DNA of 64,000 nt, taken from Rikenellaceae bacterium. Its GTDB lineage: Bacteria > Bacteroidota > Bacteroidia > Bacteroidales > Rikenellaceae. The notes under the pieces are model-generated. The model was not told where the DNA came from, did not search any database, and saw nothing but the letters and a program-made list of their open reading frames with translations. The stretch is taken from assembly GCA_017463585.1 (NCBI GenBank), contig JAFTOX010000007.1:35533-99532 (forward strand), read 5' to 3'. Shown one piece after another: positions 19,141 through 41,660 of the stretch (positions are counted from its first letter, which is position 1; the number at the start of each line of letters is the position of its first letter). The translations under genes and the position numbers were made by a program.

Positions 19141-20205
19141 CTACTCCCAACCTGTCAGCGCCGCAAATTGCTCGATCACAATCTTGGCCATCTTCTCCTG
19201 ACCGTAGCGATTGGGGTGTCCCGACGCACCAAGATCGGTCGTATCGTTATAGACATCTTTCGAGATATCGGCCATCGCCGTATTCGGAATCGTCGCAACC
19301 ATCTCCTTCACGCACTCAACCGCAAAGGGCGAATGTACCACGCACAGCACGGGTAGCTCCGCACCCCAAGCCTCGCGCAGACGCTCGATCAGCGCTCGGT
19401 AGCCCGCAACATACTGCTCCTCGGTGGGTCGGGGCATCGTGCTGAAATCGTTAGTACCCAGCGTGATAACTATTGCGTCGGGGCGATAGGGACTCTTCTC
19501 GAAATCCCAATCACAGGAAAAATCCTCGTCGTAGAGGCGGAATGCACGCGCGCTCATCGTGAGGTCGTGATCCGACACCTGCAACGAATCGCCATAGTTG
19601 CGCACCAGACCGCGTCCCGAGTGCGAGATCAATGTATAATCGGCGTCGAAACGCTCGGCCGTCAGTGCTGCGTATGTATAGCGGCAGTTCTCGGTTTCGG
19701 GCAGGAAGGGATCGGTACCCGAATTGCTCTCGGTGCCATAGCCGCAAGTGAGCGAATCGCCATAGAACTCGATGTGGCGGGCGCGTTTCAACTCGTCGGT
19801 CGAGAGCAGACGTCCGTCGGTCGTAATCGTATGCAGCGTAATGCGTCCCTGCTCGGCCTCGGTCGCCTTCTGGATACGCACCACGTGCTCGCCCTTAGCC
19901 TCGGGGTTATCAAAAAGCACAAGCGTCGTGTGCTCGCCCTCGGAGGTCAGTTTGGGTTGTTCCTCGCCATCGATCCACACATTGAGGTAGTTACGTTTCG
20001 TGTCGCTCAGCTCGATAGCCAAGTACGAACCACGAAAACGGATATCGACATAGACACCGCTCCAATCGAACGAGATCGAGCCATCGTCGTGCGTCAGGGT
20101 ACGTCCCACCACGCGGGCGGGCGAATCAGCCACAGAGGTGGTCTTCTGCCCACCGCAGCTGCCAAGCAGCGAACACATCAAAGTCAAAATCAGCAGTCGT
20201 TTCAT
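19141..20205 (-). CDS. SGNH/GDSL esterase lipoprotein, CE2-like (probable O-acetylesterase)
   Basis: Lipobox LLGSC; IEFYGDSLTCGYG; ITLGTNDF; GHPN. Confidence 0.88.
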   Translation of the reverse strand: MKRLLILTLMCSLLGSCGGQKTTSVADSPARVVGRTLTHDDGSISFDWSGVYVDIRFRGSYLAIELSDTKRNYLNVWIDGEEQPKLTSEGEHTTLVLFDNPEAKGEHVVRIQKATEAEQGRITLHTITTDGRLLSTDELKRARHIEFYGDSLTCGYGTESNSGTDPFLPETENCRYTYAALTAERFDADYTLISHSGRGLVRNYGDSLQVSDHDLTMSARAFRLYDEDFSCDWDFEKSPYRPDAIVITLGTNDFSTMPRPTEEQYVAGYRALIERLREAWGAELPVLCVVHSPFAVECVKEMVATIPNTAMADISKDVYNDTTDLGASGHPNRYGQEKMAKIVIEQFAALTGWE

Positions 20206-22022
20206 TAGATAAACTCTCCATTAATAGTTACACCCTTAGCAAACGGGTTCAGCACCTTATCGATCACCACAGCACACTCCAAACGGGTTGCATCGCGCTG
20301 AGGATCAAAGTTTTCCAAACCCCACTCAGTCCACTGCTCAGCCGTTACCGAGCCGTGGTCAATGATATCCTGCACCGTTACATTGCGCTGCTCGGCAATG
20401 TGCGGAATCTCGGCATCGAACGAGTGCAGACCGCGCGAAAGCTCGTCCATCGAGATCGCTTCGTTAATACGGAACCAGCTCTGGTTCTCCCAGCCGACGG
20501 TCATACCCACACCCTCGATAATACCCGTAACGCCCACACGCTGGATAGCTCCAAAGTGGGGATCGGTCGCAGGCAGATCGAGGAACGGCAACAGATAGCC
20601 ACCACCAGCCAGCACCTCGCGCTGCACCTCACGCACCGACACCTCGCGCGGCTCGATGCCCTGCTTCACTGCCAGCGCAGCCACGATACCCGCAGCCTCA
20701 CCAATCTGCATCACAACAGGTTGCAAACGAGTCGAGCCATTGACGATGTTGCTCACCGAGATCGACTTCTCGGCTACGATCAGCCCATCGACCTCCTTAG
20801 GCAGCAGCACGCCCATCGGCAGACCATACGACGGAATCGAATGGAAATAGAGATTGGGCAGTGCCTCCCAACCCGTATATCGCGTATGGTGCTGATCGAC
20901 CGGATAGTCGCCCACAGCGATAGCCGTACGGTAGAGCGTAAAGTCGTAAGGATCAGTGATATGATTCAACTTGAAACGCACCTCGCCCACCGTACGACGC
21001 GACTCGCGGTGGTAGGGCATCAGGGGCATCAGGTCCTCGGTCGGGAACTCGTCATCGGCCAGATAGAGCGTATTCAGACCCAGATCGTGCTGAATGAAAT
21101 AGAGGAAATTGCGCGTATGAGCCTTTGCCTTTGCCACCGCCTCGGCACGCTCCTCGTCGTTCATTTCGATCATATTGACGTAATAGTCGTTACCCTCAAT
21201 GGGCCAATTAATCATAATTTTACCATTGGGCAGGCGACCGTAAGTCATCATCATCTGCTTCGACCATAGGCGGTTAGCCTCCTTCGGGGTGCGGCAGATC
21301 TCGTTCTCGCAAGCGCACGCAAACAGCGTCGAGTCGTAGTCGGCAGGACGCTCGATGGTCATATCGCGACCATAATCCTTCAAGATCATCACCATCGTCA
21401 GATCCTGAATAATGCCGTTCGCCTCCTCGGGCGCGATATCCTCGCCCGTTACGTGGCGGCTCTCCATACCGATATCGTACTTCACGCCCAACTGCGCTGC
21501 CACATCACCCAACTCGGTGCCGTCGATAAGCACCTTGCACTCAACCGTTTGGCGACCCTCAGCGCCTTCGAGCGTCAGCGTCCAGCCCTCGTCGGTACGC
21601 TCGATCGAGGTTGCTCGCGTTTCGAACTTAACGGTCAGCGCCTCCTCGTTGTCGGCCATTGCGCGGAAAATTCGCGCACCGACACTCGGCTCAAACAGCA
21701 GATTGCTCACCCAACCCGTTTTGAGCGACTGAGCACCGCCATAGTGCGCTTCGAGCGAGTCGCGCAACTCGCCCCACATACCGCCACGCAGACGATAGTT
21801 ACCATCTGTTGCGCTCACACCTGCCGAGGTGAGCATACCGCCCAGCCACGGACCCTGCTCGACGATGAGCGTCTGTGCGCCCAAACGTGCCGCACGGATA
21901 CCTGCCGTAGTGCCACTCACGCCACCGCCAATGACCACTACGTCATACGTTTCGCCGCCACAAGCGGTCAAGAACGCCGCAACCACAATGGCTACGGCGT
22001 AGTTCAAAATACGTTTCATCAC
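20205..22022 (-). CDS. FAD-dependent oxidoreductase lipoprotein (PF12831-like)
   Basis: Lipobox FLTAC; DVVVIGGGVSGTTAGIRAARLG; LGGMLTSAGV; IDGTELGD; STRLQPVVMQIGEAAG. Confidence 0.88.
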   Translation of the reverse strand: MMKRILNYAVAIVVAAFLTACGGETYDVVVIGGGVSGTTAGIRAARLGAQTLIVEQGPWLGGMLTSAGVSATDGNYRLRGGMWGELRDSLEAHYGGAQSLKTGWVSNLLFEPSVGARIFRAMADNEEALTVKFETRATSIERTDEGWTLTLEGAEGRQTVECKVLIDGTELGDVAAQLGVKYDIGMESRHVTGEDIAPEEANGIIQDLTMVMILKDYGRDMTIERPADYDSTLFACACENEICRTPKEANRLWSKQMMMTYGRLPNGKIMINWPIEGNDYYVNMIEMNDEERAEAVAKAKAHTRNFLYFIQHDLGLNTLYLADDEFPTEDLMPLMPYHRESRRTVGEVRFKLNHITDPYDFTLYRTAIAVGDYPVDQHHTRYTGWEALPNLYFHSIPSYGLPMGVLLPKEVDGLIVAEKSISVSNIVNGSTRLQPVVMQIGEAAGIVAALAVKQGIEPREVSVREVQREVLAGGGYLLPFLDLPATDPHFGAIQRVGVTGIIEGVGMTVGWENQSWFRINEAISMDELSRGLHSFDAEIPHIAEQRNVTVQDIIDHGSVTAEQWTEWGLENFDPQRDATRLECAVVIDKVLNPFAKGVTINGEFI

Positions 22023-22026
22023 GTCT

Positions 22027-23454
22027 TTATTTCAAGGTTATAGTTTGCGTATAGACTCTTCCAAAACGATCCGTAGCCGTTACCTCTGCCACTCGCGCAC
22101 CTGCGGGAATTGCCACTCGATAGAAGTGATCTGCGGGCGTGGGATAGACATAGGGGTGATCCAGCTTCTCGCGGTCGGCATACATCACCTGCGCTGCGGG
22201 GTCATAGGCCGTGAAGCTCTCCATCTTCTGCGCCTTGCCGCCATCGAATCGTGCCTCGATCGACCACTTCTCATCGGCTGCCCAAACATTTGCCACCAAT
22301 TGACCCGCAAATTGCGGATACTGCTCACCAAAGTAGATGGTCATCTGGTGCTCGGGCGCATAGTCGGTCGACTTGTAGTACCAATTCACCTTGTCGCCAT
22401 CGACCTCAAAGACACCATAACCGCGCGGCGTACCGTCGGTGCAGAGCTGACCCTGCCACCACGCACCACTCAGCGCGGGGATCACGTGCTCGTACAGGCG
22501 ATCGGTAATCTGCTGATTGTAGGTGGTATGGGTATGTCCCGACAGAATATGCGCATTGTACGGAGCCAGCATACGGTGCAACTGCGGAGCATTGGTCATC
22601 ACGTTTGCAATCGTGCTATAACTGAACTGCTTACGATCCTTCTCCTCGCAGGTCGAGGGGATATGCAGAATCACAAATACGGTCGCGCCTTCATCGACAT
22701 AGCTGAGGTCCTTTTCGAGCCAAGCGAACTGACGCTCATCGAGATAGCCGATATAGAAGTAATCACGACCGATATAGAAATTGTCGTTCAGCACCACATA
22801 GTGCGCCTTACCCACATTGAACGAGTAGCACACCGGACCGAAGGTCTGCTCCCAAAGGCGGGTCGAGGTCTCGTGCGAACGGCTATACAGCGTCATATCG
22901 TGGTTGCCGGGGGTACTGAAAAAGTCCAGACCCGACGTTGCAGCCACCTCATTATAAGTGGGATAGAACGTATGATCGTACGAAATCACATCGCCACAGC
23001 AGATGCCGTGGAACGGAATATCGTAGCCCTCGACCGTGCGTCGAATGTCGGCCATACCCTCGCGGAGTGCAGGGAACTCCTTTTTATGCCAGATCTGCGG
23101 ATCGGCAATCACCACAAAACCGTGGTGCGTGTCGTCCTGCGCCTTGCGCATAAGCGTAAAGTCGTAGCTCCTCTTGTCCTCCTCCTTCTGCTGCCAGAAC
23201 TGCGGGACACTCTGCTTCGACGGCACGCTATAACCCGACGGAACGGTGATGTAAATCAGCCCGTTATCGTCTGCCGACACAAGCTCAAAACGACCCTTCG
23301 CGTCGGTCTGCGTAAAGTTCTCGCCATCGGTTACGACCACCGCTGCAACTCCCTCGCCATCGCACTTGACCGTACCTTTGAGGGTCTTGACACCCGTAGC
23401 CCACGCCATTGCGCACCACACGAGTGCGACCGAAAGCAACAATATACGTTTCAT
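22027..23454 (-). CDS. Calcineurin-like metallophosphoesterase (CPTP-like, with N- and C-terminal accessory domains)
   Basis: IADPQ, CGDVI, PGNHD, FVILHIP, LSGHTH, CTDGTPRGY. Confidence 0.9.
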   Translation of the reverse strand: MKRILLLSVALVWCAMAWATGVKTLKGTVKCDGEGVAAVVVTDGENFTQTDAKGRFELVSADDNGLIYITVPSGYSVPSKQSVPQFWQQKEEDKRSYDFTLMRKAQDDTHHGFVVIADPQIWHKKEFPALREGMADIRRTVEGYDIPFHGICCGDVISYDHTFYPTYNEVAATSGLDFFSTPGNHDMTLYSRSHETSTRLWEQTFGPVCYSFNVGKAHYVVLNDNFYIGRDYFYIGYLDERQFAWLEKDLSYVDEGATVFVILHIPSTCEEKDRKQFSYSTIANVMTNAPQLHRMLAPYNAHILSGHTHTTYNQQITDRLYEHVIPALSGAWWQGQLCTDGTPRGYGVFEVDGDKVNWYYKSTDYAPEHQMTIYFGEQYPQFAGQLVANVWAADEKWSIEARFDGGKAQKMESFTAYDPAAQVMYADREKLDHPYVYPTPADHFYRVAIPAGARVAEVTATDRFGRVYTQTITLK

Positions 23455-23464
23455 CGTCCCCCTC

Positions 23465-24646
23465 CTATTTCTCCATCTTCTGTTTCAACTCTTTGAGCAG
23501 GCACTCGCATTTGTACAGACCGCGAGGTACGTGGAAACAACCCTTCCATTTACCACCTTTGAGCGTCAGCAGCACCTCGCCACGACGATTCAGGTAGCCG
23601 AACCACTCGGGGTGCTCCTCATCGCGGAAGTGCGACCAAGTGTAGTCGTGCAACTTCTCGAACCAAGCCTTGCAACGCTCATCGCCCGTCAGCAGGTAGC
23701 CCTCCAACATTGCGATTGTCGATTCGATATGCACCCACCACAACTTCTGATCCCATTCGAGCTGCTGCGGAGGACAACCCTTGCGATCCATAAAGTAGAA
23801 GATACCGCCGTGCTCCTTATCCCAACCGAAATCGAGCGTGTTCAGACCGATCTCGACTGCCTTGCGAATCAGTTCCTCGTCGCCACGACGACGCGCCAGA
23901 TCCATCACAAACCACATCGTTTCGAGCGTATGACCGGGGTTGATCAGTCGGCCGTCGAACGTATCGCTCAGCGTACCGTCGGCATTCATATGCTCAACAA
24001 CCAGACCCAACTCAGGACGATAGAAGTCGTTCATCACATCGCCCAACGCCTTCTCGATCGACTCCTCAACCAACTGAGGCTCAATCAGGTGCTCGATTTC
24101 GAGCAGCAGATTGCAAAGGATCATCGACGGTGCCAACGCACGCATATCGCGCGAGCCTGCGTGAGCCTTGTTCCAACGAGCCTTGGGGTTATCCCAACGC
24201 TCCATAATGTGCTGGAACGTGCGACGTGTAGCCTCGGCATAGCGCCCCTCGCCCGTAGCTTTGTGCAGCTGCGCAAAGGCCATCGCTGCAAACGTGTACG
24301 AGAAGATGTTGTAGGGATCAACCAGCGGCTTACCGTCGCGCGTCAATGCAAAATACCAATTGTAATCGCCATCGTGGCCATAGCGGAGCATAAACTCAGC
24401 ACCCTGACGGGCGCACTCCAACCACTCGGGACGCACACCCTCCTTGTTGCACATCATCGAGAAGAGCCAAACCTCACGACCCTGCAACCACATAAATTTA
24501 TCGGTGTCGAAGACCGATCCGTCGCGGTCGAGGCAGGTGAAGTAGCCACCAAACTCCTTATCCTGCGAATGCTCCAACCAGAACGGCAACACGCGATTGT
24601 GCAGCTCGTCGTGGTATTGCTGGATCAAGGCATCTATGTTTTTCAT
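23465..24646 (-). CDS. N-acylglucosamine 2-epimerase (AGE family; GlcNAc/ManNAc)
   Basis: GGYFTCLDRDG...TDKFMWLQGR; NPGHTLE; KLWWVHIE; GGKWKGCFHVPR. Confidence 0.93.
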   Translation of the reverse strand: MKNIDALIQQYHDELHNRVLPFWLEHSQDKEFGGYFTCLDRDGSVFDTDKFMWLQGREVWLFSMMCNKEGVRPEWLECARQGAEFMLRYGHDGDYNWYFALTRDGKPLVDPYNIFSYTFAAMAFAQLHKATGEGRYAEATRRTFQHIMERWDNPKARWNKAHAGSRDMRALAPSMILCNLLLEIEHLIEPQLVEESIEKALGDVMNDFYRPELGLVVEHMNADGTLSDTFDGRLINPGHTLETMWFVMDLARRRGDEELIRKAVEIGLNTLDFGWDKEHGGIFYFMDRKGCPPQQLEWDQKLWWVHIESTIAMLEGYLLTGDERCKAWFEKLHDYTWSHFRDEEHPEWFGYLNRRGEVLLTLKGGKWKGCFHVPRGLYKCECLLKELKQKMEK

Positions 24647-24714
24647 CTTTATATCGTATTTTCTTTAATGTTAGTTATCAATTCGTTATGTTACGTTGTG
24701 TTGTGTCGTTCGCC

Positions 24715-25650
24715 CTACTTCTTATCTAAGAAATATTCGCAATAGCGGTCGAACAGATGGTGCGCCGAGGTGTAGCTCGACTGAGGCGAGAGGAAATGCG
24801 AAAACTCGAAGGTGATCGCCTTATCGTAACCCGCACGTGCCGCAGCTTCGAGCTTCATTCGCAGCTTCTCGAACTTGATGGGCAGGAATTTGATCGGCAT
24901 ATCGCGGTCGAAGGTCTCGGCATTGGTCCAGCACTCCAAACCGTAGCGATCGGCCAGACGCTTGTTCACCTCGAAGAAGGCGTCCAGCTCATCGTAGTCG
25001 ATATGTCCATCTTGGAATGCCACAGCATCAACCGCACCCTGAATACCCGCAAAGATCTCGTCCCACTCACGCTCGTGGTCGGCCACCGACACGGCGTCCT
25101 CCTTCGACAGCGTCGACGATGCCGCCATAACCGCCTTCTTGCCGTCGATCCACGGCGAGATCAGCGTCGGCATACCGCCCGAAACCGCCTTACAATGCTC
25201 GCCCTGCTCGCGGAAAGCCTCGATCACACCCTTCGTGCGACGCGAAATCTCACCACTCAGGTACCAGCCGCCAAACGACTTATGGTGCTGACCGTAGTTC
25301 TCCCACACTTCGTCGATGACGTAACGGTTGTACTCGGTCTCCTTCGACATATCGCCCGTATCCCAATAGTGACCCGAGTCGTACAGACCGAAGTAGAACT
25401 TCATTCCGTGCTTGTCGGCCAAGCGCAGGAAGAGATCCAACAGGTCAGTCGAGGGCTTATAGCAACCCTTGCCAATCAGATATTTCGAGGGGTAGGTAAT
25501 GAACTTGCGATACCCCGAGCGAATCATAATCACCGTATCAATGCCGATCGAGCGCATATGCTGAAAATCGGCGTCCCACTCCTTCTCGCCCCAATTCTGG
25601 TGCGGAATGTCGTGGCTGATCTCATCGAGAAATGTTCCAGTAATTTTCAT
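24715..25650 (-). CDS. DUF4434-domain protein (putative TIM-barrel glycoside hydrolase-like)
   Basis: GTFLDEISHDIPHQNWG, FGGWYLSGE, VAFQDG, ITFEFSHF. Confidence 0.8.
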   Translation of the reverse strand: MKITGTFLDEISHDIPHQNWGEKEWDADFQHMRSIGIDTVIMIRSGYRKFITYPSKYLIGKGCYKPSTDLLDLFLRLADKHGMKFYFGLYDSGHYWDTGDMSKETEYNRYVIDEVWENYGQHHKSFGGWYLSGEISRRTKGVIEAFREQGEHCKAVSGGMPTLISPWIDGKKAVMAASSTLSKEDAVSVADHEREWDEIFAGIQGAVDAVAFQDGHIDYDELDAFFEVNKRLADRYGLECWTNAETFDRDMPIKFLPIKFEKLRMKLEAAARAGYDKAITFEFSHFLSPQSSYTSAHHLFDRYCEYFLDKK

Positions 25651-25669
25651 TGTTTATATCTTAATTTTA

Positions 25670-27073: not shown

Positions 27074-27084
27074 CTGTTACTCGG

Positions 27085-27747
27085 TTATTTACGCAAATAT
27101 TTCATCTTTTTGAGGTGATCGACCCAAATCACATAGGCCTCGGCGTGGAGATGGATTCCATCTTTGGTCAGTTCCTCACGCAGTTCGCCCTTCTCGTTGT
27201 GAAGCAACGACGCCAGATCGACCCACGTTGCCAACCCCTCGTCGCACATCGCTTTCAGTCGTTCATTGAGGGCGTGCGTCTGTGCCTGCTTGCCCTTTGC
27301 ATAGGGATATGCCAGCACATCATTGTTGGGCGTGATGACACTTTGCAGATAGACCTCGCACGTGGGCACCGCCTCACGCACCATCTCCAACATCTTGCGG
27401 ATATTGGCTGCAACCTCCTCGACGGGGCGGTTGCCCGAAAGGTCATTGACACCCGCCATCAAGAATATCTTGCGGGGCGCACTCTCCAAAATCTCGGGCA
27501 GACGAGCCAGCATTCCGCGAGTATTGTCACCACCGATACCGCGATTGACGATCCCCTTCTCTTTCGAGAGGAAGCTCCACCAACCCTGCTCGGTGATACT
27601 ATCACCTAACCACACGATTGCGCCCGTCGGCATACCCGCCTTGCGGTGGGCAGCCAGACGGCAATCGTAGTAGTCGCCAAAACCCGATTGTGCCATCGTC
27701 GGGCACACGGCAACGAGCGCGAAGAGCGCAATGAGCCATCTTCTCAT
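27085..27747 (-). CDS. GDSL/SGNH acylhydrolase (probable O-acetylesterase)
   Basis: LGDSITE, NRGIGGD, AGVND, DGIH; signal peptide. Confidence 0.9.
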   Translation of the reverse strand: MRRWLIALFALVAVCPTMAQSGFGDYYDCRLAAHRKAGMPTGAIVWLGDSITEQGWWSFLSKEKGIVNRGIGGDNTRGMLARLPEILESAPRKIFLMAGVNDLSGNRPVEEVAANIRKMLEMVREAVPTCEVYLQSVITPNNDVLAYPYAKGKQAQTHALNERLKAMCDEGLATWVDLASLLHNEKGELREELTKDGIHLHAEAYVIWVDHLKKMKYLRK

Positions 27748-32895: not shown

Positions 32896-35800
32896 TTAGA
32901 GTGTAATGTTCAAACCAACCGACATCACGCGCTGCTGCGGGTAGTAACCGTTGTTAACACTCGGCAGCTCGGGGTCGATGTTATACTTAGTCAAGTGGCT
33001 CAGAGTAAGGAGGTTCGAACCCTCAACATAGATACGCAAGTTCTTGATACCGATCTTGTTCATCCACTTCGAGGGGAACGTGTAACCCAACTGAGCGGTC
33101 TTCAAGCGCAGGTAGTCACCCGGACGATACCAATGGGTCGACGAGTGAGCATTGTGCGAACTCGAAGCCAACGACAGACGCGGGAAGTATGCGTCGGGGT
33201 TCTCGGGAGTCCACGAGTTGAGTACCAAGTAGAGAGGCGTATTACCATCGTGGTAGAAGGGCTTGGTCATCGACGTATTGTCCATAATACCACCATCATA
33301 AACACCCGTCAGTGCGATGGTCGAACCGATTGCGCCCTGTAACAAGAAGTTCAGATCAAGACCCTTCCAAGCCAAGTTGAACGCCAAACCTCCCGTAAAT
33401 TTGGGATAGACACTCGTACCTACATAACCACGGTCCTGCTCATACGAGATCTTACCATCACCATTGCGGTCAATGTACTTGATATCACCCACGCGAACGG
33501 GCTTACCAACCATCGTAGGCGAGTTCTCAACATCTGCCTGATCCTTATACAGACCGTCAGCAATGAAACCGATCACCGAACCAACCTCCTTACCGGTCAG
33601 CTTCTGGTAGTCGGGAGCGTTAGCTGCATCGCCTGCATAGAGCAACCAACGACGCTTAGCGTACGAACCCATCAACTTGATACCGTACGAGAAGTCGCCA
33701 CTGCGGCTGCGATAGTTGTGCGACAAGGTCAGATCGAAACCGCGAACGTCCTGCTTGTTCTTGTTCTCCCAAGCGGGGAAGTAATCACCAACCGAGGGAG
33801 GATACGAACCCGATGCGCTCGACAACATATCATATTTATAGGTGTAGAATACGTCAGCCTCAACACCGAGCAGACCACCCCAGAACGTTGCATCGACACC
33901 GATGTTGTAGTTCAAGTTCTTCTCCCACGAGATGTTGGGGTTAGCCACCGACGAGGTGTAGATGCTCTGCTGACCCTGACCGCCGATTACCACCGAGTTA
34001 CCGTCCGAAATATCCATCGAGCTCAGATACTGGAATGCGCTGACTGCCGAAGTACCGGTCAGACCGACACCGGCACGCAATTTCAGGTTATCAACCCAAT
34101 CAGCACCAAACCAACGCTCCTCCGAGATACGCCAACCTGCCGACGCTGCGGGGAAGAAGCCCCAGCGCGAGCCGTTCATACCCGAGAACAGATAGGTACC
34201 GTCGTAACGACCCGAAAGCTCCAAGTAGAAACGATCGGCGTAGTCGTAGTTGATACGAGCCACGAAACCAACCTGACGCGAGTGCGAGCTCATACCACCA
34301 ACGGCGCGCTTGTCGCTCGACTGGTCACCGAAGTTCAACTCAGGCAGATTCTCGAACAACAGATCGTAGGTACGACCGTAGTGGTTGTTGCTGCGGTGGT
34401 CGCGGGTCTCCATCAGCACCAGAGCTGCGATACGGTGATCCTGGCAGAAGGTCTTGTCGTACGACAACGAGCTCTGAGTGATACCGTAGTAGGTGTAGTA
34501 CGAAGCCTCCTGCAACGAGTTCTCCGAGCCCAGACCCGAATAGGTTTGGCTCACCGAGTAGTTGATCTTGTTGATGTAGCCATTCTCATCATACGAGAAG
34601 CTACCCAACGCCATCTCGTACGGAGTCGAGAACGACTTGGTGTGCTGGAAGGTCATATCGTACGAAGCGAAGAACTTAGCCGACAGGCCCTTAACCCAAG
34701 GCACGTCCCAACGCAACGAGATATTGGGCTGAATGAATGTAGCGCGGCTCTTATACTTACCCGACTCCAAATATGCAGCTACGGGGTTAACCGTTGCCGA
34801 AGCGGTTGCGGTTGCGGTGTGATACTCAACGCCGTCGATCATAACCTTCTCGGGCACGTAGGGGTGAACACGCATAGCCTGCTGCGCTACGTTGTTCCAA
34901 GCCGAAGGATCAGCCGAGTAGGTCGGCTGGTCGTGATCCTGAATACGACCTGCAACACCCACGTCGAGGGTCAAGCTCTTGGCGATCTTAGCCGAGAGGT
35001 TCACACGTGCGTTATAGCGACGGAAGTTGAAGTTCTCAACGTTACCCTTCTGGTCGAACAGACCCACCGAAGTAAAGTAGTTGATACGGTCGTTACCACC
35101 ATTAGCCGATACCGTGTGCGACATATTCGAACCTACGCCGAACACCTTGTCGTACCAATTGGTGTTGCCCCAACCGTCCTCGCCTGCCAACATCTTCTGC
35201 ACGATATCGGCGGTGAAGATAGGCTGCTGACCGTCGAGCTCCAACGCCTTGTTGTACCAATAGGCGTAAGCGGGACCGTCCAACAGCTCCAACGGGTTGG
35301 CATTCGAGCTGATACCATACGAGCCCTTGTACGAGATGGTCGACTCGCCATTCTTACCACGCTTGGTGGTTACGATGATGACCGTATTACCGTCCAGACC
35401 ATAAACCGCAGCTGCCGAAGCATCTTTCAGAATCGAGATCGACTCGATATCCTCGGGGTTGATCTGGTTGATGTCACGGGGCACACCGTCGACGATGTAG
35501 AGCGCCGACTGACCACGCACCATAATCGACGAAGCGTCAGCACCGGGCTGACCCGACGACTGCACTGCGGTTACACCCGACACACGACCTGCCAACATAT
35601 TGGTTACGTCGCCCATAGGTGCTTTTTCGAGCTCTTTACCCGAGATCTGCGAGATTGAGGCAGTTACCGATGCCTTCTTCTGCACGCCGTAGCCGACAAC
35701 CACAACGTCTTCGATCATCTCAGCGTCATTTTTGAGCTCCACCACCAAATTCGACACGCCCGTTACGGGAACATTAACAGTCTGCATTCCGATATACGAA

Positions 35801-36057
35801 ATCTGCAATACCGCTCCCTTTTTGACGTTTTGAAGTGTAAACAGACCGTTGATGTCGGTTGAGGTAGCGTTCTGCGTACCTGCCTCAACAACCGTAGCGC
35901 CGGCAAGAGGGGCGCCCTTTTCATCAACGACAGTTCCCTTGATAGCGTTTTGCGCCCAAGCCATACTCGGACACAAAACAACGAAGAGCAGACAGAGGAC
36001 CGACAGCACGTGGCTCATCAGACCCCCACCCCTTCTTGTTTGGGATAAATGTTTCAT
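32896..36057 (-). CDS. susC: SusC/RagA TonB-dependent transporter
   Basis: VVVGYGVQKK, INPEDIESISILKDASAAAVYG, IIVTTKRG, YLRLKTAQLGY, YPQQRVMSVGLNITL; start could be the second Met at 36018. Confidence 0.96.
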   Translation of the reverse strand: MKHLSQTRRGGGLMSHVLSVLCLLFVVLCPSMAWAQNAIKGTVVDEKGAPLAGATVVEAGTQNATSTDINGLFTLQNVKKGAVLQISYIGMQTVNVPVTGVSNLVVELKNDAEMIEDVVVVGYGVQKKASVTASISQISGKELEKAPMGDVTNMLAGRVSGVTAVQSSGQPGADASSIMVRGQSALYIVDGVPRDINQINPEDIESISILKDASAAAVYGLDGNTVIIVTTKRGKNGESTISYKGSYGISSNANPLELLDGPAYAYWYNKALELDGQQPIFTADIVQKMLAGEDGWGNTNWYDKVFGVGSNMSHTVSANGGNDRINYFTSVGLFDQKGNVENFNFRRYNARVNLSAKIAKSLTLDVGVAGRIQDHDQPTYSADPSAWNNVAQQAMRVHPYVPEKVMIDGVEYHTATATASATVNPVAAYLESGKYKSRATFIQPNISLRWDVPWVKGLSAKFFASYDMTFQHTKSFSTPYEMALGSFSYDENGYINKINYSVSQTYSGLGSENSLQEASYYTYYGITQSSLSYDKTFCQDHRIAALVLMETRDHRSNNHYGRTYDLLFENLPELNFGDQSSDKRAVGGMSSHSRQVGFVARINYDYADRFYLELSGRYDGTYLFSGMNGSRWGFFPAASAGWRISEERWFGADWVDNLKLRAGVGLTGTSAVSAFQYLSSMDISDGNSVVIGGQGQQSIYTSSVANPNISWEKNLNYNIGVDATFWGGLLGVEADVFYTYKYDMLSSASGSYPPSVGDYFPAWENKNKQDVRGFDLTLSHNYRSRSGDFSYGIKLMGSYAKRRWLLYAGDAANAPDYQKLTGKEVGSVIGFIADGLYKDQADVENSPTMVGKPVRVGDIKYIDRNGDGKISYEQDRGYVGTSVYPKFTGGLAFNLAWKGLDLNFLLQGAIGSTIALTGVYDGGIMDNTSMTKPFYHDGNTPLYLVLNSWTPENPDAYFPRLSLASSSHNAHSSTHWYRPGDYLRLKTAQLGYTFPSKWMNKIGIKNLRIYVEGSNLLTLSHLTKYNIDPELPSVNNGYYPQQRVMSVGLNITL

Positions 36058-36093
36058 AAATTATTGATTTTTAAGTTTGTAATTTCCTCTTCG

Positions 36094-37440
36094 TTACTCC
36101 TCGACGACCTTCATATTCTCTTCGAGCAGATCCCACCAATCACGATTGACGATGTGAACCAGATCGAAGATCATCAGACCGCCCTCACAGCTCTTCATCA
36201 CCTGACGAACTGCCTTAGCAAACTGCTCAGCGTCCTGCTTATACTGATCAACATAGAGCGAACCTGCCACGGGAACAACGCCACAAGTGATCGCCTGAGC
36301 CAGCTCTGCGCCACCCTCAACCGAGTAGCAGTAGGTCAGATCGTTGGGATCCATACCCGACTCGCCACGCTCACCGATTATGCGACCCTGCGCTGCATCG
36401 ACCTCGTCTTTGGTTACGAGTGTATAGTAAAGACCCGTCATATAGATATCGAGCAGGTCGGCATAACCCGTCTTATAGTAGTTCTCCGAAGCCCAATCGG
36501 GATAGCGCTCCGAGGGGTCGTACTGCGTACTTGCCCAATTCACGCCCAGCTGGTAGTAAGTAGGATACCAAGCGCCCGTGTAGTCGCCAATCAAAATATC
36601 GGGATTCACAGCGTGGATCGCCTCGTGAGCCTCCTCAACAAACGACTTGATGACCGTTGCACGCCACTCGACCCACTCCTTGAAGTACTTCGAATGCTTC
36701 ATATTGCCGTCCTCCCAATAGATGATATCTTCGGGATACTTTTCGAGTTTCAAACCGCTCCACTCCTCGAACTGCTGACGCGAAAGCTCCGAGAAGTCCG
36801 AAGTGATGTTGTCGTAACGCAGACGGTCGAAGATGATACCATCGACATCGGGATAGCGTTCCGTGAACTCGACCAAGATATTCTTCTGGTACTCACGCAC
36901 CTCGGGATTCGAGGGGTTGAGCATACCGTTGTAGTTGGTCTTGATCTCGCTGATGGGCACCAACGAGCCGTCGGGACGATAGACAATCGACTGCCATTCG
37001 GGGTGCTCGTTGAAAATGATACCACGATTGAAGAAGATATGACCACCGGCAAAGATGTTGAGCGAGCCGTGAACGCGCATACCGCGCTTGTGGCCCTCGT
37101 CGATGAAGTGGCGCATCATATCGTACTCGCGCGGACGTACCGTACCCTCGAACTCACCCATATAGGGTGCATACTTACTGTCGTAGAGCGTCTCGCCCAT
37201 AATCGACTTAACATCGACTACGATGTCGGTAATGCCGATCGAGTGCATCTTCTCGGTGTAGTAAGCGATCGAGTCGAGCGTGCTCATACGCTCGAAGTTA
37301 GCCTCGCAATCGACCCACATATAGATCGGTTTCTGCTTAGCGGTCTGCTCAGCAGCGGGAGCGCAGCTGCCCATCGAGAAGAGCACAGCCACCACCGCCA
37401 TCAACTGTATAAAGATATTGTTCTTCATTATTGTTTGCAA
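36094..37440 (-). CDS. GHL10 (DUF4985-associated) glycoside hydrolase-like lipoprotein
   Basis: Lipobox MGSC; IYMWVDCEANF, VDGIIFDRLRYD, YYQLGVNWAS, IFDLVHI. Confidence 0.8.
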   Translation of the reverse strand: MQTIMKNNIFIQLMAVVAVLFSMGSCAPAAEQTAKQKPIYMWVDCEANFERMSTLDSIAYYTEKMHSIGITDIVVDVKSIMGETLYDSKYAPYMGEFEGTVRPREYDMMRHFIDEGHKRGMRVHGSLNIFAGGHIFFNRGIIFNEHPEWQSIVYRPDGSLVPISEIKTNYNGMLNPSNPEVREYQKNILVEFTERYPDVDGIIFDRLRYDNITSDFSELSRQQFEEWSGLKLEKYPEDIIYWEDGNMKHSKYFKEWVEWRATVIKSFVEEAHEAIHAVNPDILIGDYTGAWYPTYYQLGVNWASTQYDPSERYPDWASENYYKTGYADLLDIYMTGLYYTLVTKDEVDAAQGRIIGERGESGMDPNDLTYCYSVEGGAELAQAITCGVVPVAGSLYVDQYKQDAEQFAKAVRQVMKSCEGGLMIFDLVHIVNRDWWDLLEENMKVVEE

Positions 37441-37478
37441 TGCTTAGTTTCGTGTATACCTATATTTATATTATGTGG

Positions 37479-38756
37479 TTATTCGACCTCCGAAAGCACA
37501 ACTACGGTCGGCACTGCACGCTGGCTGCCGTCGCTCGGAGCGTTGCAAACCTGACCGTCGAAGCCAACGATAGCCGACGAACCACCACCATCGAGGTTGA
37601 TCGCGTAGTCCATACCTGCCTCCACGAACATATCAGCCAACTCGCTCAGAGTCATACCGTTCGAGCCATTCTGACCACGACCGTCGCAAACCACCAGCAT
37701 CACCTTGCCGTCCTTCGTACCGCCGATTGCCGTGCGGGGCTGACGCGAAGTACCTGCCGTACCTCCCGTGTGCATAATCTCGCGGTAGTAGTAATCCATC
37801 GCTACGTTCTTGCGCTTGTAGACCAACATCGGGCCACCGCCGATAGCCTGCTGAGCCTCCCAAAGGCTTGCACCTGTGGTCGATGCAGTCGGGGGTGCGG
37901 GCATATAGGTCTCGGTCAGCTCGTTGTTGTCGAGCGGCGAGAGGAACGAGTAGGGCTTCTTGTCGATGCAGTAGACCCAAGTAGCCTCGAACGAGCCATC
38001 AGCCATCTGACCGAACGCTGCACGCACGGGATAAGCCACGATCTGCTCGCCATTGACGGTCGGATAAGCCAACTCGGTTGCGATCGACTTCACCTCGCCA
38101 TCGCTAATGCAGAGGCTGAGCGAAGCGCCGTCCCAGAAGTAACCACCATTCGACACTGCGTAGGGAGTACCCTTGCCCAGAGCACCAAATGCCTCGAAAG
38201 CCGAGGTCGGAGTCTTGGCGGGGTCGAGGTGCGTCGGAGCAAAGCGGAGTTTCGGGTTAGCTTTGAGGTCTGCCACTGCGACGTAACCCTTCGCTACGCC
38301 ACCGTCCTCGAAGTTACGAGTGAAGGCCTCGAACTTCATCTTCTTGGGATAGTTCGATTCGGGGGCGTCGCTTGCGGTGATTACCGTTACGGGCACGCAC
38401 ACCGAGCCGTGCAGTTCGTCCTTCGCTGCGGCGATGAAGGTGTAAGCCGTTGCGGGATTCAGACCCTCGATCTTCACCTCGGCAACCTCCTCGGTGATGG
38501 GCGTACCCTCGGCAAATACCTGCTCGATTGTTTTGGTCAAAGTTTCGCCTTCGGTGTAGATATAAGCGCACTCGTCGGCGTAATACGTGTTGAAACGTAC
38601 AGTGATGAAGTCAGTACCCTTCTCGACCGGCGTAATGGTCACGGTCGGAGTTGTTTCGGGTGTCGGGAAGATATACTGCGGAGTGCTTCCCTTTTCGCAA
38701 CTGATACAGAGGCTGATAGCAGCCATCAACATCATCAAAACGGATAGTTTTTTCAT
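37479..38756 (-). CDS. Phosphodiester glycosidase (NAGPA-like) lipoprotein with N-terminal FN3-like domain
   Basis: NGGYF, AIGGGPML, QPRTAIG, VCDGRG, INLDGGGSS, QRAVPTVVV. Confidence 0.9.
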   Translation of the reverse strand: MKKLSVLMMLMAAISLCISCEKGSTPQYIFPTPETTPTVTITPVEKGTDFITVRFNTYYADECAYIYTEGETLTKTIEQVFAEGTPITEEVAEVKIEGLNPATAYTFIAAAKDELHGSVCVPVTVITASDAPESNYPKKMKFEAFTRNFEDGGVAKGYVAVADLKANPKLRFAPTHLDPAKTPTSAFEAFGALGKGTPYAVSNGGYFWDGASLSLCISDGEVKSIATELAYPTVNGEQIVAYPVRAAFGQMADGSFEATWVYCIDKKPYSFLSPLDNNELTETYMPAPPTASTTGASLWEAQQAIGGGPMLVYKRKNVAMDYYYREIMHTGGTAGTSRQPRTAIGGTKDGKVMLVVCDGRGQNGSNGMTLSELADMFVEAGMDYAINLDGGGSSAIVGFDGQVCNAPSDGSQRAVPTVVVLSEVE

Positions 38757-39004
38757 TTTATCGTGTTATTATAGTTATATTCTTGCGCTAAATTAAATAA
38801 AATTATTCATACTGCAAAGTTTTTAAATAAATTTTAAGAAGATAAAAATCACCGAAAAGCATATCAAGCTATTGTAGCTCAGCGAGTTAAGTGATTTTTG
38901 ACCTGATTTTTTGAAATAAAATATTTTTACGAACTACTTTTCTACCTCCCCGCGTTGTCGTTTTTACCCCCAAAATGGACGAAAAACCGCGCCGAGAACA
39001 ACAC

Positions 39005-39033
39005 AAAAAAAGCCGCCCACGTGGGACGGCTTT
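39005..39033 (-). terminator. Probable terminator after the AmpG-like MFS gene
   Basis: Imperfect AAAGCCG...CGGCTTT hairpin with an A-run on + (U-run on -). Confidence 0.55.
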
Positions 39034-39061
39034 CTCGGTTTAACATATGATTTTTAGCCCG

Positions 39062-40339
39062 TTACTTATCCTCCTGCGGATCTGGATAGGTGAAGGGCAG
39101 GAACCACGTCAGCACGAACGCGGGGATTGCGCTCACCAGCGCCCACAAGAAGAACTTCTCGTAGCCGATTGCGTCGCTGATCACACCCGAAATCATACCC
39201 GGCAACATCACGCCAAGGTTAGCCAGCGCCGAGCCGAAAGCGTAGTGAGCCATCTGATGTTTGCCCGGTGCAACCTGCTGCATAATGAACAGCGTAAGTC
39301 CCACAAAACCAAATCCGTAGCTAAAATACTCGAACACGATTGCGCCACAAACCAGCAGTGCGCTATCGGGCTGATACAGAGCCAGCAGAGCATAGACCAC
39401 GAACGGAATATTGAAGATACAGCAGAGCGGGAAAATCGCCTTTTTCAGACCTCGCCACGAGATGAAATAGCCGCCCAAAATCGAGCCGATGATGAACGCC
39501 ACAACGCCAAACGTACCGTAGTAAAGTCCAATTTCGTCCTTGGTCAAGCCCAAGCCCTGCACCGCCGTATCGGCCTTCAAGAAGAGGGGTACAATCTTGA
39601 TTACCAGACCCTCAGTGAAACGGTAGAAGACGATCCACGCGATGTAGATCCAGATGTATTTCTTCTGGAAGAACTGAGCGATTACACCCCACGTTTCGCG
39701 CATCGTTTCGCCGAACGAGCTGTGCTTGGTTGCCTCAGCGCCACCCGTAGGCAGAATGCGCCAATGGTAAAGACCTAACACAATGAGCAGCAGACCACAA
39801 AGCAACATAATAATCACCCACGCATAGAGCACGCCGAGGCTATCTTCGAGCACGCCTGCGAGGTAGACCAGACCACCCATTGCGGTCACCTTAGCCAAGT
39901 TGTAGAATGCACCCTGCCAGCCCACAAACTGAGCCTGCTGGGTCTTGTCCAGCTCGGTGATATAGACGCCATCGAGGGCGATATCGTGCGTCGCGCCACT
40001 GAACGCCAGCACCGTCATAATCGCCACAACATAGGGGAAGAAGTTGGGCAGCGGCAGAGCCATCGCAATGAGTGCCAGCGAGATACCCGATACCAGCTGA
40101 GTGGTCACAACAAAGAATTTCTTGGTGCGATACATCTCCATCAGAGGGCTCCAAAACGGTTTGAGCGACCACGGGAGAATCAGCAACGAGGTCCAAAAGG
40201 CTACCTGAGCGTCCGAAATGCCGAAGTCGTTGAACATCAGCGGCGCAACCAGATTGATCAAGATCAGTGGCAGACCCATCGCAAAGTAGGCCGACGGAAC
40301 CCACCACAGAGGTGATTTTTTGATTTGAGTTTGTTCCAT
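39062..40339 (-). CDS. AmpG-like MFS transporter
   Basis: WVPSAYFAMGLP, LPWSLKPFWSP, SGATHDIALDG, GMISGVISDAIGY. Confidence 0.88.
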   Translation of the reverse strand: MEQTQIKKSPLWWVPSAYFAMGLPLILINLVAPLMFNDFGISDAQVAFWTSLLILPWSLKPFWSPLMEMYRTKKFFVVTTQLVSGISLALIAMALPLPNFFPYVVAIMTVLAFSGATHDIALDGVYITELDKTQQAQFVGWQGAFYNLAKVTAMGGLVYLAGVLEDSLGVLYAWVIIMLLCGLLLIVLGLYHWRILPTGGAEATKHSSFGETMRETWGVIAQFFQKKYIWIYIAWIVFYRFTEGLVIKIVPLFLKADTAVQGLGLTKDEIGLYYGTFGVVAFIIGSILGGYFISWRGLKKAIFPLCCIFNIPFVVYALLALYQPDSALLVCGAIVFEYFSYGFGFVGLTLFIMQQVAPGKHQMAHYAFGSALANLGVMLPGMISGVISDAIGYEKFFLWALVSAIPAFVLTWFLPFTYPDPQEDK

Positions 40340-40442
40340 TTTTGTATTGTTTTTTGAATTTAATTCCTATCGTTTTTCGACCGAATTTTTCGCAAAATTC
40401 AGAGCATTTTTAAGGCTTTTTCGGGTACTTTTTCGGGCAAAA

Positions 40443-41660
40443 TTAGAGTCCCAACATCTTGTTTCGGGTGATGGCGCAAATGCCCACCAAACCTGCCGTT
40501 TCGCCCAGTTTCGACACCTTGATCGCTGTATCCTTCGACACGAAATTCAGCGCATATTTATTGATCGCACTCTTGATCGGCAGCAGCAGGTAATCCTTTG
40601 CCTCACAGAGTGTTCCGCCCAACACAACCATCTCAGGATTGAACATATTGATCAGTCCCGCAATGGCTCGTCCGAGCGACGATCCGATCTGCTCCATCAC
40701 CTCGATTGCCAGCATATCCTCCTTGGCCAAAACGTCCAAAATATCGTCCAACGTTATCTGCTTTCCGCTCTCGAATTGTTTGGACAACATCGAGATATTT
40801 CCCTGCTTCAATTTCTCGATAAATTGACGATGTGCAGCCCATCCCGACACCTCGGTTTCGAGGCAGCCGCGCTTGCCGCACGAACAGATGATTTCGTTAT
40901 CGAAAAATGGGAAGTGACCATACTCGCCCGAGAAGCCCGACTTACCGTAGTGGAGCTGCCCGCCGATGATCATTCCGATACCGAATCCCCAACTCAAATT
41001 GAGGAAAATCATATTCTGTTCGCCATTGCCAATGCCGTAGACATACTCGCCGTAAGTCATTGCACGCGAATCGTTTTCGATGTAAACACGGCACCCCAAT
41101 CGCTCTTCGAGCACCGTCGTCAGCGGCTTTTCGTCGAAGAAGAAATATGAGTACGAATAGCCCGTTTCGGGATTGACACGACCCGACAAATTGATACCGA
41201 TCGCCAGCAATTTTTCACGACGAATGCGCGACGTGGCGATGAATTGCGAGATCAGATTGCACAGTTCGTCGAACGACTGACGGGTGTTCACGATATGAAA
41301 ATCGTACTGACGCGAGATGACCATATCTCCACGAAAGTTAATGATACCCAATACGATAACATCGCGCTTGATATCGACACCCATAAAATAACCCGCCGAG
41401 GGATTGACGCCATAGATACTCGGACGGCGACCACCCGTAGCGCCCTGCTTGCCGAGGTTGATGACCAGATCTTCGTCAATCAGTTCGCCCACGATTTTGG
41501 TGAGTGTCGGCACGCTCAGCCCAAGGTCGCGACTCAAATCGGCAATACTCTCGCCGCCATTAAACATATAACGGCGCAAGATTTCGCGTTTGAGCTGCGC
41601 CGATTTTTTCCCGCTGGTCAGGGCTTCCATTGAGATCTGCTTTACCATATCCGTTTGCAT
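40443..41660 (-). CDS. ROK-family transcriptional repressor (NagC/XylR/NanR-like)
   Basis: N-terminal HTH (SIADLSRDLGLSVPTLTKIV), GGRRP, YIENDSRA, GFSGEYGH, CSCGKRGCLE; the TAACTTTG -7 box at 41714-41721 puts the start at 41660 or 41648, not 41726. Confidence 0.93.
   Translation of the reverse strand: MQTDMVKQISMEALTSGKKSAQLKREILRRYMFNGGESIADLSRDLGLSVPTLTKIVGELIDEDLVINLGKQGATGGRRPSIYGVNPSAGYFMGVDIKRDVIVLGIINFRGDMVISRQYDFHIVNTRQSFDELCNLISQFIATSRIRREKLLAIGINLSGRVNPETGYSYSYFFFDEKPLTTVLEERLGCRVYIENDSRAMTYGEYVYGIGNGEQNMIFLNLSWGFGIGMIIGGQLHYGKSGFSGEYGHFPFFDNEIICSCGKRGCLETEVSGWAAHRQFIEKLKQGNISMLSKQFESGKQITLDDILDVLAKEDMLAIEVMEQIGSSLGRAIAGLINMFNPEMVVLGGTLCEAKDYLLLPIKSAINKYALNFVSKDTAIKVSKLGETAGLVGICAITRNKMLGL

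Follow-up and report, generated by a model that had tools for sequence, protein, structure and literature searches.

We analyzed a 64,000-nucleotide stretch (hereafter the window) of contig JAFTOX010000007.1 from assembly GCA_017463585.1, the 2.1-Mb, 96.7% complete genome of an Alistipes of ruminant guts. The window contains a 25-kb nutrient-harvesting cluster of gut Alistipes, a polysaccharide utilization locus (PUL) of the Sus-like type of Bacteroidota with adjoining SusC and SusD genes, co-oriented enzyme genes and a linked ROK regulator (40443-41726). A preliminary description made from the sequence alone had delimited this locus as 19141-41660, but we found that it extends to 44153. All ten gene types named in that description were recovered in its span on the minus strand by Pfam and NCBIfam scans. 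However, it had left out the DUF5009 gene, the PF12831 lipoprotein, the SusC/SusD/DUF5018 core and a divergent gene at 41892-44153, and had started the ROK gene, itself correctly recognized, at an internal ATG (41660) of the full open reading frame 40443-41726.

According to the open reading frame listing and the Pfam and NCBIfam scans, an unbroken block of minus-strand genes runs from 41726 to 19141. In the order of transcription it encodes a ROK regulator, an AmpG-like permease of the major facilitator superfamily (MFS), a NAGPA-like protein, GHL10b, SusC, SusD, a DUF5018 protein, GHL10a, an SGNH esterase, a DUF5009 protein, a DUF4434 protein, a 2-epimerase, a MetallophosN/C phosphoesterase, a PF12831 protein and a CE2 esterase. 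All intergenic gaps in the NAGPA-to-CE2 stretch measure at most 70 bp, and terminator-like hairpins occur in two places only, 3' of the MFS gene (39036-39006) and 3' of the CE2 gene (19105-19077). Given these short gaps and the position of the hairpins, the sequence indicates two transcription units, a ROK-MFS unit and a 13-gene enzyme/transport operon of 19.6 kb. The features of the locus are as follows.

19077..19105, minus strand: terminator-like hairpin (13-bp stem and T-run) immediately past the stop codon of the CE2 gene, closing the long NAGPA-to-CE2 unit
19141..20205, minus strand: CE2-family SGNH esterase, lipoprotein (LGSC), predicted O-deacetylase (CE2_N, 84.6 bits, and GDSL)
20205..22022, minus strand: PF12831 FAD-dependent-oxidoreductase-like lipoprotein (FAD_oxidored, 319 bits)
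22027..23454, minus strand: periplasmic metallophosphoesterase (MetallophosN/Metallophos/MetallophosC, Pfam scan)
23465..24646, minus strand: N-acylglucosamine 2-epimerase (AGE; N-acetylmannosamine, ManNAc, to N-acetylglucosamine, GlcNAc, and back), cytoplasmic, no signal peptide (PF07221, 260 bits)
24715..25650, minus strand: DUF4434 (PF14488) TIM-barrel protein, leaderless, predicted cytoplasmic (283 bits)
25670..27073, minus strand: DUF5009/HGSNAT-like transmembrane acetyltransferase (PF16401, 206.6 bits; gathering cut-off 25)
27085..27747, minus strand: small periplasmic SGNH esterase with signal peptide (Lipase_GDSL_2, 93 bits)
27768..29438, minus strand: GHL10a, GHL10+DUF4985 lipoprotein with N-terminal beta-sandwich (GHL10, 45.2 bits; DRGRFD motif)
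29508..31229, minus strand: DUF5018 surface glycan-binding-type lipoprotein (PF16410, 282 bits)
31242..32885, minus strand: SusD-like protein (SusD_RagB, 187 bits)
32896..36057, minus strand: SusC-like TonB-dependent transporter (CarboxypepD_reg and Plug domains)
36094..37440, minus strand: GHL10b, GHL10+DUF4985 lipoprotein (GHL10, 74.4 bits; DUF4985, 130 bits; DRLRYD motif)
37479..38756, minus strand: NAGPA-family phosphodiester glycosidase lipoprotein with N-terminal beta-sandwich module (PF09992, 108.2 bits; gathering cut-off 25)
39006..39036, minus strand: terminator-like hairpin after the MFS gene, placed between the ROK-MFS unit and the enzyme operon
39062..40339, minus strand: AmpG-like MFS permease (MFS_1), predicted importer of di- or oligosaccharides
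40443..41726, minus strand: ROK-family regulator with winged helix-turn-helix, NanR-like (ROK, 194 bits, and HTH_24)
41892..44153, plus strand: divergent DUF4988/BACON/DUF5018 surface protein (Pfam scan; synteny in contig L085)

The divergent surface protein gene occupies the same position beside the ROK gene in the related Alistipes contig L085 and belongs to the locus. The genes flanking the locus are unrelated to it and encode a Na+/H+ antiporter at one end and CHASE2/CHAT proteins at the opposite end. The scans of the locus revealed no sialidase, no sulfatase and no classical glycoside hydrolase (GH) family, which bears out the earlier statement that neither a sialidase nor a sulfatase is recognizable.

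Relatives of the locus in other Bacteroidota

The window proteins were compared by tblastn with 80 loci centred on DUF4434. The epimerase accompanies DUF4434 in 50 of these loci and ROK genes flank 26 of them; SusC was found in 37, the PF12831 protein in 29, GHL10 in 16-19, DUF5009 in 14 and the phosphoesterase in 12. Around homologues of the NAGPA-like protein, on independent contigs, SusC/D, MetallophosN/C, DUF5009, CE2, DUF5018 and a BACON protein recur, along with usually two to three copies of GHL10/DUF4985 and often GH20 or GH89. Since the same families recur in independent loci and as fusions, the association of these genes is far beyond chance.

Three fusions are of particular relevance. 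GHL10/DUF4985 is fused to CE2 in one related locus (L086) and to MetallophosN/C in L087 (7420-10095), which comes from a B. thetaiotaomicron-like genome, and a SASA esterase is fused to GHL10/DUF4985 in a sister PUL of the latter genome. In all three, the partner of GHL10 is an esterase or phosphoesterase, which makes it very likely that the GHL10/DUF4985 proteins act on a substrate that is both O-acylated and phosphorylated. The general logic of the preliminary description, which proposed an N-acetylhexosamine (HexNAc) glycan with O-acyl and phosphate groups, holds and gains support from these fusions. The recurring accessory enzymes (GH20, GH89 and a NagB+PIG-L fusion) are all HexNAc-directed. 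The last of these, a glucosamine-6-P deaminase (NagB) joined to a PIG-L deacetylase, is encoded directly downstream of NAGPA-GHL10 in one locus (L091, 12437-14383) and ties the family to GlcNAc catabolism.

The B. thetaiotaomicron-like genome contains two homologous PULs, with 29-63% identity to the window proteins. One of them corresponds to BT0437-BT0453, as matched by published locus tags (PMC10434189), and encodes AGE, GH89, SusC/D, a BT3987-N/F5-8 protein, DUF4855+GDPD, GH3, CE2, DUF5009, SASA+GHL10, a phosphoesterase, GHL10, DUF5018, SusD/C and a further AGE. In B. thetaiotaomicron VPI-5482, PUL8/PUL9 (BT0433-BT0454; operons BT0439-0443 and BT0453-0449) comprise the same families in a similar order. 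AGE (BT0437/BT0453), DUF4434 (BT0435), SusC/D, DUF5018, two GHL10/DUF4985 proteins, MetallophosN/C, DUF5009, CE2 and the ROK regulator are shared with the window, which has at least eight families around SusC/D in common with this PUL8/PUL9-type orphan family. B. thetaiotaomicron additionally encodes GH89, GH3, DUF4855+GDPD and the SASA fusion, whereas the window has NAGPA in the operon, the PF12831 lipoprotein and an additional SGNH esterase. Moreover, B. thetaiotaomicron combines a DUF4434 protein exported by the twin-arginine translocation (Tat) pathway with a Sugar_tr porter, whereas the window combines a leaderless DUF4434 protein with an AmpG-like MFS permease.

The locus family is a known orphan, of which the window is a new, rearranged member. 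Related gene sets in other Bacteroidales, as noted before, are confirmed by independent loci including those of the B. thetaiotaomicron-like genome. The orphan status of the substrate stands as well, but the novelty is smaller than the preliminary description implied, the family already being known as an orphan. Relatives also occur in lineages that are not host-associated (Puia, Prolixibacteraceae, Proteiniphilum and Microbacter). Among evenly drawn genomes DUF4985 was detected in 7 of 301 at the level of the phylum, 4 of 251 at the level of the order and 7 of 121 at the level of the family, always in two to five, mostly clustered copies. The locus is accessory and patchy, not universal, even within the genus. 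As a side observation, two contigs of the B. thetaiotaomicron-like assembly, L087/L088 (G001 C6) and L089/L090 (G001 C11), end inside near-identical epimerase genes, which fits the inversion shufflon at BT0437/BT0453 (bioRxiv 10.1101/2025.06.24.661248).

DUF4434 export, transporter type and the epimerase

The DUF4434 protein of the window is 76-80% identical to BT_0435 (PDB 4H41). It begins with MKITGTF, stop codons directly precede the ATG, and a twin-arginine signal is absent. We surveyed 81 loci with close DUF4434 homologues and found a twin-arginine (RRxFLK-type) signal on DUF4434 in 65 of them, including B. thetaiotaomicron and Tannerella (NRRDFLK / NRREFLK). A Sugar_tr-type monosaccharide porter is encoded within 300 bp downstream in 58 of these 65 loci. 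The ten loci of the window clade all have a DUF4434 protein without N-terminal extension and all lack the porter, and DUF5009 lies immediately upstream of DUF4434 in nine of them (the exception being L002). The window follows this layout, its DUF5009 gene ending 19 bp upstream of DUF4434. The AmpG-like MFS gene stands beside the ROK gene in both clade PULs for which the regulator-side flank was read, i.e., the window and L085 (in L085, DUF4434 itself falls outside the sequenced flank). In contrast, L086, with a Tat-DUF4434, encodes the porter and no AmpG-like gene in the stretch examined. The genome of the window does contain a TatC gene.

The export state of DUF4434 thus co-varies with the type of transporter across the locus family, which is new here. 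The simplest reading is that in most Bacteroidota DUF4434 would produce a monosaccharide in the periplasm, which is imported by the porter and passed on to the epimerase, whereas in the window clade a di- or oligosaccharide precursor would be imported and then split in the cytoplasm. As the export state follows the transporter type, this pattern supports a role of DUF4434 as putative terminal, exo-acting enzyme upstream of the epimerase.

TatA and TatC genes adjoin homologous PULs in three Rikenellaceae contexts (L081/L082, 6965-7966; L091, 6785-7808; L093, 4429-5473), a placement that fits Tat-dependent PUL components. DUF4434 itself is highly conserved, with 78-81% identity phylum-wide and more than 593 matches; three cysteines and several His/Asp residues are invariant, a hint of a cofactor or metal site. 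In a Foldseek search, its structural neighbours after 4H41 were Cwp19 (first, E 1e-8, TM 0.62) and then glycosidases of clan GH-A. A GH156-type sialidase or an aldolase was rejected as identity of DUF4434: phmmer finds 4H41 only, the best Foldseek neighbours are those just named, and the top 50 contain no sialidase and no NanA/DHDPS-type aldolase, with homocitrate synthase at rank 41 and a carboxyltransferase at rank 47. A sequence-level paralogy with the GHL10 proteins of PULs was likewise discarded (profile-profile probability 2.7%, not significant), leaving a likeness at the fold level only.

The epimerase passes the NF052547 equivalog cut-off (654.4 bits against 600). B. fragilis and Tannerella encode such an epimerase in their sialic acid clusters (nanLET / nanOU), where a lyase, an AGE epimerase and an MFS transporter stand under a ROK-type regulator. 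The AGE-family epimerase, the MFS transporter and the ROK regulator are common to the window, and the lyase-transporter-epimerase layout equals the DUF4434-transporter-AGE layout of the locus family. However, the window genome yielded no match to a BNR_2 (GH33-type) sialidase and none to the NanA lyase (TIGR00683), and the structural neighbours of DUF4434 are TIM barrels of the glycosidase type. The combination of sialidase and lyase that defines a nan cluster is thus absent from these searches. B. thetaiotaomicron, with two copies of the same epimerase, does not metabolize sialic acid. Because neither sialidase nor NanA was detected and B. thetaiotaomicron does not use sialic acid in spite of its two epimerases, the epimerase is predicted not to serve sialic acid here. 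The TIGR00683 search gave zero candidates, not even a DapA-like gene, and gave matches in 13 of 14 control genomes, so that either the filter missed a gene or the genome has no DHDPS-family gene; such an outcome counts for less than a negative with scores.

Enzymes, permease and regulator

Both GHL10 domains of the window score above the PF02638 gathering cut-off of 27.9 (45.2 and 74.4 bits), the housekeeping copy of the same genome reaching 230 bits. GHL10b is 29% identical to GHL10a. The latter has acidic residues after the lipobox cysteine (CTEDKD) and is predicted to be an endo-acting enzyme at the surface; GHL10b is predicted to be a periplasmic depolymerase. Canonical GHL10 proteins are enzymes of the glycan strands of peptidoglycan, as stated for Cwp19 (PMC6016235) and for DigH, which acts on denuded glycans (PMC12288456). 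Cwp19 (PDB 5OQ2) and E. coli DigH have the TIM-barrel GHL10 Pfam domain in common with the window proteins, and Cwp19 is the only solved structure matched in a sequence search with GHL10b as the sole query. The window proteins differ in their weak GHL10 score, the added C-terminal DUF4985 and an altered active site. The conserved active site of Cwp19 is Asp195-Asp196-Tyr197 (PMC5765458). At the aligned site both window proteins and 45 of 47 related PUL-type genes carry D-R-x-R-Y/F-D in place of the Asp-Asp-Tyr of Cwp19/DigH-type peptidoglycan hydrolases, whereas the housekeeping GHL10 of the same genome has MDDYFYP, i.e., the canonical D-D-Y. Because of this replacement, function is not transferable from Cwp19, which the preliminary description had used as a precedent for the locus. 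With two arginines in the predicted active site, the substrate may be anionic.

The NAGPA-like protein contains the segment '...AINLDGGGSS...' with the invariant DGGGS loop and catalytic Asp, and a 'PRTAIGG' segment. Both motifs, RTAIG and DGGGS, can be aligned with the structures of vertebrate NAGPA (PMC13474241). The PF09992 core, the DGGGS loop and the RTAIG segment are shared with vertebrate NAGPA (PDB 6PKU/6PKY, human cryo-EM), but overall identity falls in the class below 20%, phmmer aligns only the C-terminal ~75 residues, and the bacterial lipoprotein has an added N-terminal beta-sandwich and no EGF stalk. It is predicted to be a glycosidase acting on GlcNAc-alpha-1-phosphodiesters. 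An N-terminal module of ~100 residues is common to the NAGPA-like protein (38350-38650) and GHL10a (29020-29330), with 27% identity and a pairwise E-value of 3e-4; this module is missing from most NAGPA homologues (340-350 aa). A second NAGPA-family gene of the genome (G000 C20:52653-53759; 368 aa, 40% identical) is not part of a PUL and has housekeeping-looking neighbours.

A search of solved structures with the metallophosphoesterase gave no close match. The CE2 esterase carries a 'YGDSLT' motif and aligns with the solved CE2 enzymes 2WAO/2WAA/2W9X with E-values of 1e-27 to 1e-31 (best 7e-31). It misses the AxeC2 equivalog cut-off (155 against 500) but is a bona fide CE2 relative.

The permease was called AmpG-like in the preliminary description. 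AmpG (TIGR00901) is indeed its best-scoring family, but with 142.3 bits the protein does not reach the cut-off of 350. A second AmpG-like copy (G000 C3:64719-66047), with 34% identity to it, is located in a housekeeping-looking cluster for the salvage of N-acetylmuramic acid (MurNAc; G000 C3:63222-74599). This cluster also comprises an M23 peptidase, a GT2-like gene, a 945-aa amidase-like protein and, ~7 kb from the AmpG-like copy, a BadF-type (MurK-like) kinase and MurQ (323 bits, cut-off 302); except for MurQ and the permease, it was annotated by eye. As MurQ exceeds its cut-off and lies next to a BadF-type kinase, the genome can presumably catabolize MurNAc and GlcNAc products. For the ROK regulator, the B. 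thetaiotaomicron gene BT0433 was predicted as 'NanR', for the utilization of sialic acid and GlcNAc (PMC3878776).

DUF5009 combines its score far above the gathering cut-off with the architecture of a polytopic membrane protein, as expected for an HGSNAT-like member of the TmAT superfamily. A structural survey of 2025 places DUF5009 inside the clade of HGSNAT, acetyl-CoA:glucosaminide N-acetyltransferase, with no experimental data on any member (PMC12423673). It is predicted to N-acetylate glucosamine (GlcN) residues outside the cytoplasm. The PF12831 protein and its close orthologues have an intact GxGxxG dinucleotide-binding motif and a Sec-type lipoprotein signal; among its homologues a Tat signal was found in one distant Tannerella protein only. 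The signal would place it outside the cytoplasm. Its AlphaFold model (pLDDT 84) matched generic flavoprotein folds only (TM <0.33), and assignment of a role from structure was abandoned for that reason. A literature search returned no functional report on DUF4434, DUF4985, DUF5009 or PF12831, and no Bacteroides teichoic-acid PUL.

The probable substrate

The target glycan would be HexNAc-rich, O-acylated, partly N-deacetylated and equipped with phosphate or phosphodiester-linked alpha-GlcNAc, and it most plausibly stems from microbial cell envelopes. We regard a HexNAc phosphoglycan of microbial envelopes as substrate class with confidence that is evenly poised, and favour it over host glycans. 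The candidate sources are most plausibly teichoic-acid-type or secondary wall polymers with their ManNAc-GlcNAc-1-P linkage unit, and possibly modified peptidoglycan. A HexNAc glycan of non-sialic origin is suggested because the epimerase is assigned at the equivalog level, GH20, GH89 and NagB+PIG-L recur, and no sialidase or NanA was detected. A microbial rather than a host origin is suggested because no classical host- or plant-glycan GH, sulfatase or lyase is encoded and because relatives are found in non-host Bacteroidota. The GDPD glycerophosphodiesterase in the B. thetaiotaomicron sister PUL also counts for a microbial origin. A 2026 mucin O-glycan preprint does not mention the homologous B. 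thetaiotaomicron SusC/D and names only the adjacent GH89 BT0438, which was inactive on the alpha-GlcNAc of gastric mucin.

Teichoic acids and related wall polymers contain alpha- and beta-GlcNAc together with phosphodiesters, substituents in ester linkage and a ManNAc-beta-1,4-GlcNAc-alpha-1-P linkage unit, and peptidoglycan is decorated by 6-O-acetyl groups, de-N-acetylated GlcN and phosphodiester-attached polymers. The enzyme set of the locus would map one to one onto these features. In the flow that we propose, localizations follow from signal peptides and every activity is inferred. At the surface, GHL10a and two DUF5018-type binders would fragment and capture the polymer, which SusC/D would import. 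Acyl groups would then be removed in the periplasm by the CE2 and SGNH esterases, the NAGPA-like enzyme would take alpha-GlcNAc off phosphodiesters and the metallophosphoesterase would then clear the exposed phosphate. DUF5009 would re-N-acetylate GlcN residues with cytoplasmic acetyl-CoA, and GHL10b would depolymerize further. The AmpG-like permease would bring in a di- or oligosaccharide, from which leaderless DUF4434 would free the monosaccharide in the cytoplasm, and the epimerase would turn ManNAc into GlcNAc for catabolism. A HexNAc derivative may relieve the NanR-like ROK control.

A more specific version is tentative and rather doubtful, namely that this family of loci represents the first system of Bacteroidota dedicated to eating decorated Gram-positive walls by means of four new activities (NAGPA uncoupling, a bacterial HGSNAT, an arginine-rich GHL10 and a DUF4434 glycosidase). 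Here, the NAGPA-type enzyme would uncouple polymers attached via GlcNAc-1-P, the bacterial HGSNAT would re-acetylate GlcN from outside the membrane, the D-R-x-R-Y/F-D subfamily of GHL10 would cleave an anionic (phospho- or carboxy-) HexNAc polymer, and the DUF4434 glycosidase would free ManNAc from the ManNAc-GlcNAc linkage disaccharide.

Several points weigh against a microbial-envelope phosphoglycan. The locus scans found no amidase or peptidase for stem peptides, and no GlpQ-type diesterase is present in the window. The PUL-type GHL10 proteins lack the Asp-Asp-Tyr of their peptidoglycan-active relatives, so that the type of bond cleaved is not transferable from Cwp19. One would not expect DUF4985 to be so rare (4 of 251 genomes at order level, 7 of 121 at family level) if the substrate were ubiquitous. 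The B. thetaiotaomicron operons were expressed in vivo, reportedly in mono-associated mice with no other live bacteria (Martens in 2008). Furthermore, the set of NAGPA, HGSNAT, NAGLU, SASA and GH20 mirrors the lysosomal enzymes of host-glycan breakdown, and one B. thetaiotaomicron operon (BT0453-0449) abuts a sialidase/GH20/GH2 cluster for complex N-glycans, BT0451-0461 being taken as one N-glycan PUL (PMC7531118).

The last two points lead to a host glycan as target, which we consider unlikely. The locus would then be a bacterial lysosomal toolkit, directed at N-glycans with covered mannose-6-phosphate (GlcNAc-1-P-6-Man) and O-acetylated caps, or at alpha-GlcNAc/GlcN glycans of the heparan or gastric mucin type. 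Lysosomal counterparts exist for NAGPA, the HGSNAT-like protein, NAGLU (GH89), SASA and GH20, and the NanR regulon prediction for sialic acid and GlcNAc (PMC3878776) points in the same direction. Activation of BT0438 (GH89) has moreover been seen with keratan sulfate and with glycans of colonic mucin, and the enzyme cleaves heparosan oligosaccharides according to PMC8225759. DUF5009 belongs to the HGSNAT clade (PMC12423673) and GH89 accompanies the family in B. thetaiotaomicron and other Bacteroidales; the logic of the lysosomal heparan sulfate step of human HGSNAT and NAGLU, in which a free amino sugar is acetylated so that a glycosidase can act, is the one proposed here. However, the window encodes no GH89, sulfatases or uronate-processing enzymes, and the locus scans revealed no GH18/GH85, GH92, GH2, GH29, GH33, sulfatase, lyase or GH88. 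The absence of a BNR_2 sialidase match from the genome and the inactivity of BT0438 on gastric mucin alpha-GlcNAc also disagree with a host glycan, the inducers of the B. thetaiotaomicron operons are listed as unknown, and related loci occur in Bacteroidota from soil, sediment and digesters.

We also think it improbable that the backbone of lysozyme-resistant peptidoglycan is the actual target, with GHL10 acting like a muramidase or lytic transglycosylase after deacetylation, re-N-acetylation and removal of attached polymers, and with GlcNAc-MurNAc-type disaccharides entering via the AmpG-like permease. Such a scheme would draw on the peptidoglycan activity of the canonical GHL10 enzymes Cwp19 (PMC6016235) and DigH (PMC12288456), on the one-to-one match of three known modifications with the esterase, acetyltransferase and NAGPA/phosphatase activities, on muropeptide being the only known cargo of the AmpG family (NCBIfam name), and on MurQ and the kinase in the genome. 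Against this, the Asp-Asp-Tyr is replaced by D-R-x-R-Y/F-D in 45 of the 47 PUL-type GHL10 genes, and a canonical GHL10 (230 bits) is encoded elsewhere in the genome, as is another AmpG-like protein, whose gene lies ~7 kb from those for MurQ and the MurK-like kinase. The locus encodes neither an amidase nor a peptidase, and the conserved ManNAc epimerase would be left unexplained.

Less probable still is a target glycan from eukaryotic microbes or the diet. Chitin- or chitosan-like and galactosaminogalactan-like polymers or fungal and protozoan phosphoglycans would suit an Alistipes of the ruminant gut, a habitat rich in ciliates and fungi; re-N-acetylation fits chitosan-like stretches, and GlcNAc-1-P linkages exist in some protist glycoproteins. 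Yet the locus scans showed no GH18, GH19, GH46 or GH75, homologous loci are found in Bacteroides of the human and mouse gut as well as in Bacteroidota from outside the gut, and a source of ManNAc is not obvious. Recycling or remodelling of the own envelope or capsule instead of foraging can nearly be dismissed: in B. thetaiotaomicron the global regulator BT4338 induces the homologues when carbon is limiting, and they were expressed in vivo, reportedly in mono-associated mice (Martens in 2008), but the SusC/D importer and the surface-binding lipoproteins constitute an uptake architecture, even within the genus the locus is an accessory, patchily distributed feature, and a separate housekeeping recycling cluster is present in the genome.

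PULs are the means by which gut Bacteroidota choose their food, and most of the well-studied ones target plant or host glycans. The cluster described here is built almost entirely from uncharacterized families, i.e., DUF4434, DUF4985-type GHL10, DUF5009, bacterial NAGPA and PF12831. If its substrate is a microbial wall polymer, cross-feeding on bacterial necromass via a dedicated PUL would be documented, several new families of carbohydrate-active enzymes would be defined, and a bacterial model for lysosomal NAGPA and HGSNAT would become available. If decorated Gram-positive walls are indeed the target, this would explain two B. thetaiotaomicron PULs whose in vivo inducer has been unknown since 2008. 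The hypothesis is directly testable in B. thetaiotaomicron, which carries the same locus family.

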